From Gammaproteobacteria bacterium (lineage in GTDB: Bacteria > Pseudomonadota > Gammaproteobacteria > UBA1113), in the NCBI GenBank assembly GCA_965230425.1, contig CBDDKW010000008.1, positions 73,667 to 137,666 of the forward strand: a stretch of 64,000 nt of DNA, given 5' to 3'. How positions within the stretch are numbered: the stretch's first letter is position 1; each line of letters starts with the position of its first letter. Positions 5,682 through 8,600 of this stretch are shown one piece after another. Position numbers and translations under genes: made by a program. Under the pieces are notes generated by a model. That model saw nothing but the letters and a program-made list of their open reading frames with translations. It was not told the origin of the DNA and searched no databases.

Positions 5682-8600
5682 TTATCTGAATGCATGTTTG
5701 TGTTTTGTTGCTTTATAGGTGACTTGTTTTTGGCTGGTTTTCTGTGGTGGTTCTTTTTCTCTTTTTGTATGGAAAAGTGAGTAGCGGTTTTGGGGGATGC
5801 CATGGTCATCTTCTAAACCTATATGTCGGTGTGGTGGAGTAAAAAATACCTTTTGCCCCGCAGTATCCCAGATCTCCATCTTCACAATTTCATCAGAAGG
5901 GTACATAGGCTTGGTGATGAAGTTCCGGCCAATAAAGCGTGATACATATGAGCTTTTACTAGTACTAGGAGTGCCGATAAGGATTAATTTTATGGGTGCA
6001 AAACCTGAAGTTGTTATATCAACATAGGGATTAGTCACAGATGTGGAAGGAGCTGAAGACTGTGCGGTGGTTTGTGTTTTTATTTTTATTCCACCATCGT
6101 CGTAAAGAGGGCGATGCGGAACGATATGAGTAAATAATGATGACCTATGTGTCATTGGTTTTGTCGTTTTTTCTAGACCTTCACTTCTTTTGTGAAGATT
6201 CTCCTCGTAATGAGAAAGCCCCTCATTTATAGTTTCAGCGACCTTATCAGATATGCTTTTTGAACGAGGTATTCTGATTGAAGCATTAGTTTCACTTTTT
6301 GTATTAGATAATCTTTGATTTCTTCTTAACTTACGTTCTATCCCCCTAGCTAATCGTTTTAGGATCTTCTTCGGACCTTCTGGCCCCCAATCAATTTTAC
6401 AAAGTGAAGATAATTCAGCATCTAGTGCATCTAGTAGTTTATAAGCACCAACAGAAGTGAGAGTATGTTTTTCTAGTCTTATTTTTGTAACTTTAAAATC
6501 CTCAGTTTTCCCCAATACTTGAGATAGGGTACTTATGTCATCGTCCGTAAATAATAAATCAGTAAAATCAAGCGTAGTATTTGAATGTTCATTTGCATCC
6601 TGGATAATTTCAGATATTTGAGTACGGTTGATCTGGCTATGAATATTACTCAGAATGGTTGATGAAATAGCTGAGTGGCCCGAACTTCCCCATGATAGCA
6701 TGCTTAAGTTTAAAAATACATTACTCATTGCATCCCTAATATATTCAGCACCACTATCGGTAAGTCGATGTTCATTTAATATTAGCTTACTTATCCTCAA
6801 TTTAGTTTCTTTTTTTAATGCCTTAATAAGTGAATAAATATGTGCATTAGTAACTCTAATACGTGACAAGTTCAATACTGCGGGAACAGATTCTTTGGCT
6901 TGTGCAATAAGATCAGGCAACTGATGAAGGTGTAAGTGCTCTTCAATTTTTTCGCGCATAGCTGTAGAAACTGCGGTTTTCAAGCCCATACTTCTAAAAA
7001 GTGTTCCTCGTAATATGTAGCGTTGCTTGATTCTCCCTCCCCAGTCAATGTATGTTAACTTTGAAAAAATGGTGGGCATTGCCTCAAGGAGCAGTTGAGC
7101 ACCTTGATCGTCAAGGCTATTTTTACCAAATGTTAATTCCTCCAATTGTAATTCTGGTTTATTGCTTAATAGCGTGATCAAAATCGGTATATGATCATTA
7201 GTAACCCTAACAGCGGATAAGTCTAGTCTATTATTAGTTCTTGCTTCTTTTAGTGGTATTGATAATTGGCGCGTATACAGTTGCTTATTCATTTGCAGGA
7301 GTAGTGTCGAAGATAGGTGTGAAGTAGAGCTATACCCCCACTTGATACTCGTTAACGCAGAGAGTGGTTCGTTTAAGGCGTGAAGAAGTTGTTCTAACCC
7401 GGCATCATTAATACGATGCGACCTAAATTTTAAGACTTTTAAGGTCGGCCACGGAGTTTGCCTAAGTAATTCAATTAGCTTATCAATATGTTGATCAGTC
7501 ACAGTGATACCTGATAAATCGAGTTTATCAGCAGATTGAGCTTTGGCTTGTTCAATGAGATCAGGTAATTGATGTAGATGTAGATATTCTTCAATTTTCT
7601 CACGTATACTTGTAGAAACTGCAGTTGAATGATCCTGTCGTAATGTGTTTCTACCCCAGTCAATGTATGTTAACTTTGAGAAAATGGTGGGCATTGTATC
7701 AAGGATTAGTTGAGCACCTTGATCGTCAAGGTTATTTTCACCAAATATTAATTGCTTCAATTGTAATTTTGGATTATTGCTCAATAGCGTGATCAAAATC
7801 GGTATATGATCATTAGTAACGTTAACAGCGGATAAGTCTAGTCTATTATTAGTTGTTGCTTTTTCTAGTGGTAATGATAATTGGTGCGTATACAATTGCT
7901 TATTCATTTGCAGGAGTAGTGTCGAAGATAGGTGTGAAGTAGGGCTATGTCCCCATTCGATATCCGTTAACGCAGAGAGTGGTTCAGTTAAGGCATAAAG
8001 CAGTTGCTCTAATCCGGCATCACTAATACGATGCGATTTGAATTCTAAGACTTTTAAGGTCGGCCATGGAGTTTGCGTGAGTAATTCAATTAGCTTATCA
8101 ATATGTTGATCAGTCACAGTGATACCTGCTAAATTCAGTCTATCGGGTGATTTAACTTTAGCTCTTTCAATAAGTTTTGGAAGTTGGCGAAGCTGTAATT
8201 GTTCATCTATGTTTTGCAGAAGCGTCGAAGATAGGTGTGAAGTAGGGCGTCCCCACTCGATATCCGTTAACGCAGAGAGTGGTTCAGTTAAGCCATGAAG
8301 CAGTTGCTCTAACCCGGCATCATTAAGACGATGCTTTTTGAATTTTAAGACTTTTAAGGTCGGCCACGGAGTTTGGGTGAGTAATTCGATTAGCTTATCA
8401 ATATGTTGATCCGTCACAGTGATACCTGATAAATCGAATTTATCAGAAGACTGAGCTTTAGCGTGTTGAATACGACCGGGCAACTGACGAAGGTGTAAGT
8501 GCTCTTCAATTTTTTCGCGCATACTTGTAGAAACTGCAATAGGACCTGCTCCGAATACTCTATACGGTACTAATTTGATCCCGATTTTCCCTCCCCAGTT

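Follow-up and report, generated by a model that had tools for sequence, protein, structure and literature searches.

A truncated Rab-like GTPase segment, probably vestigial, at the C terminus of a giant NACHT-LRR protein from a Legionellales-like gammaproteobacterium

The window analyzed here is the whole 64,000-nucleotide (nt) stretch of contig CBDDKW010000008.1 (positions 73,667 to 137,666, assembly GCA_965230425.1) from an uncultured Gammaproteobacteria bacterium of GTDB lineage UBA1113. It carries a giant open reading frame (ORF) of 5,455 codons, and at the C-terminal end of the predicted protein lies a short segment, referred to below as the stub, that resembles the N-terminal third of a Rab-type small GTPase domain. 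From the N to the C terminus, the product comprises about 1,000 residues without a family match, a NACHT domain, a long helical region (HEAT repeats occur in its homologues), and an array of leucine-rich repeat (LRR) units of the RNI type. The LRR units are followed by a linker of low complexity, then by the Rab-like stub and finally by a basic C-terminal tail. The giant ORF and its parts are listed below, in window coordinates.

5682..22049, minus strand: giant ORF, 5,455 amino acids, uninterrupted (ORF listing and translation)
18273..18848, minus strand: NACHT NTPase domain, residues 1068-1259 (Pfam PF05729, E=2.6e-20, 73.4 bits)
6402..10967, minus strand: array of RNI-type LRR units of ~100 residues, residues 3695-5216 (Pfam LRR_6)
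5991..6401, minus strand: Ser/Thr/Lys-rich linker of low complexity, residues 5217-5353, ~137 amino acids (translation)
5844..5990, minus strand: Rab-like stub, residues 5354-5402, equivalent to Rab positions ~5-72, from G1 to G3 (Pfam, PDB, tblastn and profile searches)
5952..5975, minus strand: degenerate P-loop GTPSTSKS, residues 5359-5366 (phmmer, MAFFT and profile alignments)
5931..5936, minus strand: site of a 12-residue in-frame deletion, between F5372 and I5373 (12-column gap in the phmmer, MAFFT and profile alignments)
5853..5870, minus strand: intact G3 motif WDTAGQ, residues 5394-5399, preceded by KMEIW and IGRNF (alignments and motif scan)
5682..5843, minus strand: basic tail, 53 residues plus the stop codon (ORF coordinates, tblastn and end of the Pfam match)

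The peptide KLILIGTPSTSKSSYVSRFIGRNFITKPMYPSDEIVKMEIWDTAGQKVFFTPP is read in frame as residues 5354-5406 of the giant ORF (window 5832-5990, minus strand), and 49 residues then follow to the C terminus. The stub contains segments that correspond to β1, the P-loop, a shortened α1, β2, β3 and G3 of a Rab G domain. In a Pfam search with the last 105 residues of the protein, the Ras family (PF00071) matched with an E value of 3.4e-6 and 27.2 bits (cutoff of 21.6) over model positions 2-61 of 162, and Roc (PF08477) matched with 27.4 bits (cutoff of 27) over the first third of the model only. When PDB sequences were searched with phmmer, the best 60 matches listed were all Rab/Ypt or annotated Rab-like GTPases, bar one Rab3A-rabphilin entry; the matches included Rab6, Ypt51, Rab5, Rab7 and Rab3, with a lowest E value of 1.9e-6. 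Identity to eukaryotic Rabs was 32 to 41% over most of the stub. The β1 strand reads KLILIG, while β2 (IGRNFITK) and β3 (KMEIW) are similar to RabF1 (IGxDF) and RabF2 (KLQIW), respectively, two of the five motifs (RabF1 to RabF5) reportedly described as Rab specific by Pereira-Leal and Seabra. The G3 consensus DxxGQ, which appears as WDTAGQE in Rabs, is present as WDTAGQ, and a six-frame motif scan showed that this is the sole D[TS]AG[QLH] or WD[TS][AP]G site in the window. With eight full-length Rab domains as tblastn queries, matches were confined to window positions 5838-6011 and query residues ~5-72, and neither these queries nor the motif scan detected any other Rab gene in the 64-kb window.

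A hidden Markov model (HMM) of eight Rab domains scored the stub at 35 to 38 bits, compared to a maximum of 4.9 bits over 2,000 composition-preserving shuffles. Since the alignable segment is short (about 50 residues), a chance similarity centered on DTAGQ might be suspected. However, the similarity spans β1, the P-loop, α1, β2 and β3, the Pfam score exceeds the curated cutoff, the best 60 PDB matches are of the Rab/Ypt type, and no shuffle approached the score of the real sequence, leaving coincidence with a negligible probability. The stub is Rab-type homology limited to G1 through G3, beyond chance. An initial annotation, made from the sequence, had described a Rab-type G1-to-G3 fragment fused to the C terminus of the giant protein, and the Pfam, PDB and Rab HMM matches, as well as the in-frame translation, bear this out, with resemblance to the Ras superfamily extending beyond the DTAGQ pentapeptide. 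The peptide that it reported is real, although the coordinates given for it (5795-5975) were off by 15 to 37 nt.

Relatives were sought in large sequence collections. A HMMER scan of 1.84 billion representative proteins returned 21 matches with E≤1e-3, all of them at ≤52 bits bar one repeat protein. This top match (P0121, 1,307 residues, from a 40.8-kb ENA metagenome contig) gave 114.7 bits in 12 stretches and was discarded as probably spurious. It is not a GTPase but a tandem repeat protein with units of ~85 residues (...AAAGKQSANMLSRYTGKSFTTDDLKPHHEALKAP...), and the score builds up from weak alignments with the GKSSYVSRFIGRNFIT segment. The named matches were eukaryotic, namely, Vigna RABH1b (Rab6) and "hypothetical" or otherwise-named proteins of Peronospora, Solemya, Artemisia and Tulasnella, and several further matches were metagenomic tandem-Rab proteins. 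The contig that encodes one of the matches, P0127 (L088; ENA ERZ746983 NODE_683, 27.9 kb), has four Ras/Rab-domain genes separated by gaps of ~1 to 2 kb, three of the four with more than one such domain, next to a gene for a 1,438-residue WD40 and pentapeptide protein. A word-indexed search of 5.8 billion proteins retrieved no relative of the stub or of the giant C terminus, and the same result was obtained when the last 255 residues were used in pattern scans of contigs from genomes, metagenomes and viruses and when the LRR region was used in a scan of metagenome contigs. In the collections searched, no protein or locus had the same truncated form. The giant C terminus was also absent from a protein collection that holds an ArgS 100% identical to that of the window (2673-4439, minus strand), and this genome seems to be only partly indexed there. 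The next best ArgS (64% identity) belongs to a metagenome-assembled genome (MAG) labeled "Legionellales bacterium," and GTDB representatives examined by pattern scan reached only ~60%. With about 50 alignable residues in the stub, no meaningful phylogeny could be built.

The equal Pfam scores of Roc and Ras (27.4 and 27.2 bits, respectively) and the position of the stub downstream of an LRR array, which is the domain order of ROCO proteins, raise another possible origin. The fragment could derive from the Roc GTPase of a ROCO-type module, in which case the C terminus of the giant protein would originally have been LRR-Roc-COR. Yet no Roc protein appears among the best 60 PDB matches listed, all of the Rab/Ypt type, and the named nearest matches among the 1.84 billion proteins are eukaryotic and include the plant Rab6/RABH1b. 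Roc domains typically read DFAG or DFGG, whereas the G3 of the stub reads WDTAGQ and is accompanied by RabF1- and RabF2-like motifs. The ROCO module is not present either, as Pfam did not detect COR and the 53 residues after the stub leave no room for it, and a low-complexity linker of ~137 residues separates the stub from the LRR array. We consider a Roc origin quite unlikely.

Sequence conservation with Rabs is interrupted at three points. The first is the P-loop, which retains the Lys and Ser of the consensus GxxxxGK[ST] but has Ser in place of the second, near-invariant Gly. Second, ...SRF and IGRNF... are separated in every alignment by a single clean gap of 12 residues, equivalent to MYDSFDNTYQAT of Rab6. 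The deleted residues are the end of α1 and the entire switch I, including the Mg-coordinating Thr of G2. The third is the end of the similarity itself, three residues past DTAGQ. Rab residues 73-200 had no match in any frame of window positions 5000-6400 (tblastn with eight Rab domains, E values up to 100, word size of 2), and G4 ([NT]KxD), G5 (SAK), β4 to β6 and α2 to α5 were found neither in the stub nor in any frame, judging from the end of the Pfam match and from tblastn. The lack of any match to this part of Rab in all frames indicates that the rest of the G domain is absent and not frameshifted. A frameshifted continuation was rejected, since neither the three minus-strand frames of positions 5400-6200 nor tblastn of positions 5000-6400 showed one. 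One 22-residue match to a Lys-rich stretch in the latter search (E=1.1) was taken to be noise. RabF3 to RabF5 fall in the missing part, while the RabF1-like and RabF2-like motifs are present, and the third residue of the Rab hydrophobic triad is also missing from the alignment. After its first few residues, the basic tail (...KREKEPPQKTSQKQVTYKATKHKHAFR, with the protein ending in ...KATKHKHAFR) has no similarity to Rab positions 73-200. There is no prenylation motif (CC, CXC or CAAX), as the last 100 residues of the giant protein are devoid of cysteine. When the last 155 residues were modeled with AlphaFold2 from the one sequence, the mean predicted local distance difference test (pLDDT) score was 41, which is uninformative either way.

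In the Ras fold, α1 heads away from the nucleotide site, and switch I returns the chain to the start of β2. After the loss of 12 residues, too little chain would be left to join α1 to the start of β2. The stub is predicted to be unable to bind GTP because it has no guanine-binding motifs, no Thr for the contact with Mg and the γ-phosphate and too few residues between α1 and β2. Judged by its motifs, it is a domain fragment that differs from a G domain in G1 (partly), G2, G4, G5 and the prenylation motif. This agrees with the initial annotation, which had considered it incapable of normal nucleotide binding and had noted the absence of G4 and G5; by tblastn and Pfam, everything past G3 is missing in all frames, and in addition G2 is gone and the P-loop is altered. 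Two of its details were less exact. To call the GK of the P-loop "replaced" was an overstatement, with the second Gly alone being lost from GTPSTSKS, and what it described as a shortened switch I is a real loss that extends to the whole of switch I and the end of α1.

The rest of the giant protein has the appearance of an NLR. Its NACHT domain has recognizable Walker A (GRAGIGKST; consensus GxxxxGK[ST]) and Walker B (FIWDGLDE; consensus hhhhDGxDE) motifs in the translation, and the nearest solved structure to this region is the NACHT domain of NLRP3 (E of ~5e-10). The best homologues of residues 1000-2400 are NACHT and HEAT proteins with ≤29% identity, from metagenomes, Parachlamydiaceae and bdelloid rotifers. 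The 29%-identical homologue was rejected as an orthologue, its locus having neither LRR nor Rab sequences, and none of the collections searched yielded an orthologue of the giant protein. In the PDB searches, the LRR region showed a weak resemblance to ribonuclease inhibitor. At the DNA level, this region contains 300-nt repeats (window 6893-9612) that are 85 to 92% identical and spaced 300 to 939 nt apart, which suggests a recent tandem expansion with duplication of several LRR units. Repeats this similar also carry, in a metagenome assembly, a risk of collapsed or misordered copies. Family profile searches with the linker (residues 5217-5353) gave nothing, and its pLDDT was below 50 in the AlphaFold2 model. 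The defense models of PADLOC v2.0.0 had zero matches to the NACHT region, the N-terminal region or the C terminus. The activity of the giant protein would rest on the NACHT NTPase switch and the repeat scaffolds, and not on the stub.

The giant gene is located in a segment with a different history from that of its surroundings, as follows.

5667..26615, no strand assigned: lineage-specific insertion of ~21 kb (gene order in relatives, GC content and annotation)
22087-22926: pentapeptide-repeat gene, inside the insertion
23007-25463: ankyrin-patatin (phospholipase) gene, inside the insertion

The insertion is flanked by an Na/Ca antiporter gene on the left and an OPT transporter gene on the right. 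Its GC content is 33 to 39%, versus 42 to 44% in the flanking genes. All three relatives compared (ArgS identity of 63 to 64%) share the order prlC-OPT-Na_Ca_ex-argS-ftsN, and in each of them Na_Ca_ex abuts OPT with a spacer of 14 to 76 nt, the ~21-kb segment being absent. This adjacency, together with the low GC content, places the giant gene in a lineage-specific insertion of ~21 kb. The Rab-like stub lies at the left edge of the insertion, at most ~330 nt from it, and the stop codon of the giant ORF is 15 nt from that of the convergent antiporter gene. No 10-mers shared between the insertion edges were found that would indicate target-site duplications or inverted repeats, nor were flanking repeats, a tRNA or an integrase seen at the insertion. 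A terminator and hairpin search in the tail found no canonical terminator; a weak hairpin and a U-rich run after the antiporter stop codon had a z score of only -1.5 and were not used as evidence. The other genes of the window are ordinary gammaproteobacterial housekeeping genes (hslV, ftsN, argS, the Ca/Na antiporter, the OPT transporter, prlC, priA and others), and its annotation includes no dot/icm genes.

Some additional observations concern the neighborhood. The ankyrin-patatin gene has weak similarity to Dot/Icm Ank effectors. An ATPase_2/AAA_14 gene with a GC content of 35.5% (29008-30138, minus strand) is located between OPT and prlC in the window, but between Na_Ca_ex and argS in the Legionellales MAG GCA_002709565.1, and it is missing from this block in the two other relatives. 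Its position appears to mark a second local rearrangement near the insertion. Three large ORFs, located at 39961-42612 (minus strand, 883 residues), 42868-43839 (minus strand, 323 residues) and 49592-52165 (plus strand, 857 residues), had no Pfam match with E≤1e-3. The first two fall in another low-GC stretch (33 to 36% at 40 to 46 kb). These three may be further lineage-specific or effector-like genes.

Considering that the contig is metagenome derived and that the near-identical repeats of the giant gene can confuse assemblers, the truncation might be an assembly or sequencing artifact, i.e., a misjoin or collapse just past the DTAGQ codons of a gene that really encodes a complete Rab-like domain. 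However, both sides of the insertion belong to the same conserved neighborhood (antiporter on the left, OPT on the right), collinear with the relatives, and the repeats are more than 1 kb away from the stub. Furthermore, no alternative frame extends the Rab similarity, which excludes a simple indel error. An artifact of this kind is, in our opinion, very unlikely.

The segment is probably a relic, left by truncation of a eukaryote-type Rab-like GTPase domain, and would not work as a GTPase. The Rab similarity restricted to positions 2-61 of the Ras model, the switch I gap and the altered P-loop, the low-confidence AlphaFold2 model, the location of the stub at the insertion edge and the lack of a same-form relative in the collections searched all support this interpretation. 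A remnant of a horizontally acquired Rab gene, one of the origins considered in the initial annotation, also fits best with the eukaryotic named matches, the low-GC lineage-specific insertion and the precedent of Legionella. The starting point would have been a Rab-like domain of the kind that Legionellales take from their protist hosts and shuffle among effector-like proteins. It would have formed the 3′-terminal part of the giant NACHT-HEAT-LRR gene, itself carried on acquired low-GC DNA, or would have lain directly behind that gene. Everything past G3 (β4 to β6, α2 to α5, G4 and G5) may then have been lost through a deletion at the border of the acquired DNA, after which the frame would read through ~50 unrelated codons to the present stop codon, at a distance of 15 nt from the convergent antiporter gene. 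Switch I would have gone in another in-frame deletion, of 12 codons, and the second Gly of the P-loop would have changed to Ser. The three lesions (truncation, switch I deletion and P-loop Gly to Ser) can be read directly from the alignments, and the order of the events is what we infer.

Several points weigh against a relic. The searches yielded no orthologue in which the C-terminal Rab domain is intact, and the full-length ancestral state is a reconstruction. The stub remains in frame, with 32 to 41% identity to eukaryotic Rabs and a perfect WDTAGQ; such preservation implies either a recent truncation or a persisting constraint. The internal deletion of 12 residues is also exactly in frame. 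Because the AlphaFold2 model was computed from one sequence only, little weight attaches to its low confidence, and the source is a metagenome-assembled contig, with the stub junction read from the assembled sequence.

Alternatively, the stub may have been retained as a functional, noncatalytic module that mimics a Rab as a bait or serves as an "integrated decoy," a role that the initial annotation had also raised. The interswitch surface with the RabF1- and RabF2-like motifs (IGRNF...KMEIWDTAGQ) would be displayed either to the regulators or effectors of host Rabs or to some factor, from a pathogen or a phage, that the NACHT-LRR protein senses, and the basic tail might help in membrane binding or secretion. 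The intact frame, the well-preserved G3 and RabF2-like motifs, the NLR-like nature of the host protein, with NACHT and LRR, and effector-like neighbors such as the ankyrin-patatin gene are all consistent with this possibility. However, just a third of the fold is present, and the loss of the α1-β2 connection would fit the canonical Ras topology poorly. The third residue of the hydrophobic triad and RabF3 to RabF5 are missing, the single-sequence AlphaFold2 model gave no confident fold, no homologue in the collections searched shows conservation of the truncated form, and PADLOC found no defense family in the NACHT region or the C terminus. Taking both sides together, we regard a functional module as unlikely. 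A more specific version, in which the stub would be a deliberately retained minimal Rab mimic with the β2-β3 interswitch hairpin (RabF1/RabF2) and the G3 loop acting as bait, is very doubtful. Such a mimic could bring host Rab regulators (GDI, REP or GEFs, for example) to a very large secreted scaffold, or it could be an integrated decoy through which the NACHT-LRR protein senses Rab-targeting factors.

To our knowledge, Rab domains of eukaryotic type occur in bacteria almost exclusively in Legionella and related organisms, where they mark gene capture from protist hosts. The stub extends this process of Rab capture to a deep-branching uncultured Legionellales-like lineage, and, if a relic, it would show a captured domain in the course of its loss, at one end of an acquired island. 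It is a decayed addition to a known class of eukaryote-derived small-GTPase sequences in Legionellales, real but ordinary. Taken alone, it is a footnote on domain decay and a warning against calling isolated G1-to-G3 matches GTPases. The more unusual features are the orphan NACHT-HEAT-LRR gene of 5,455 codons, with its modules similar to those of animal NLRs, and the island that carries it. If the stub did act as a functional bait, the integrated-decoy concept would reach bacteria, and this would be the first NLR of the integrated-decoy type outside plants.

Among known systems, the giant protein as a whole resembles NLR/STAND proteins (NLRP3 and other NOD-like receptors) in that NACHT is followed by helical repeats and by LRRs of the RNI type. 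It differs in its size, five times that of typical NLRs, and in having no recognized N-terminal effector domain, and, unlike the bacterial NACHT defense proteins represented in PADLOC, it matches no model. The stub is an additional piece appended at the C terminus, a place where integrated domains can sit, as in plant NLRs that have integrated decoys; a bait role for it is hypothetical.

PseudoGTPases, such as CENP-M and the p190RhoGAP domains, keep the complete G-domain fold and have lost the nucleotide-binding motifs. The stub is likewise a G-domain-derived sequence without these motifs, but it comprises only the N-terminal third of the domain, and with an incomplete fold it does not qualify as a pseudoGTPase in the usual meaning of the term. 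Compared to its best matches among eukaryotic Rabs (Rab6, Rab5 and Rab7; PDB 2y8e, 1ek0 and 1n6h), it aligns at β1, the Lys and Ser of the P-loop, IGxxF (RabF1), KxxIW (RabF2) and WDTAGQ. In contrast to them, it is devoid of switch I and the G2 Thr, RabF3 to RabF5, NKxD, SAK and the prenylation Cys, with ~110 of the ~170 residues of the domain missing.

The closest parallels are found within the Legionellales. The symbiont "Candidatus Centrionella anaeramoebae" has host-derived Rac1-like GTPase domains in shuffled and truncated paralogues (10.64898/2026.04.11.717937). Both cases involve a captured small-GTPase sequence in a multidomain protein, and some of the symbiont's paralogues keep short fragments of a lost domain. 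However, the GTPase domains of the symbiont are intact and 70 to 75% identical to the host gene, whereas here the GTPase domain itself is truncated, identity is ~32 to 41%, and no donor can be named. In the genus Legionella, there are 184 small-GTPase-like proteins, many of them Rab-like, acquired from protozoa and fused to other eukaryote-like domains (Gomez-Valero et al., 10.1101/350777), with Llo1716 and Llo3288 of L. longbeachae as examples of the Rab-like ones (10.1101/350777). The domains of Legionella are complete and keep the structural features of Rabs, and several are Dot/Icm translocated, whereas the stub covers only G1 to G3, with switch I deleted and the P-loop altered, and its partner is a predicted NACHT-LRR protein of 5,455 residues. 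As in Legionella, nevertheless, the stub is a eukaryote-type Rab sequence in a Legionellales-like gammaproteobacterium, fused to eukaryote-like modules and located in accessory low-GC DNA, and its nearest named relatives are eukaryotic.

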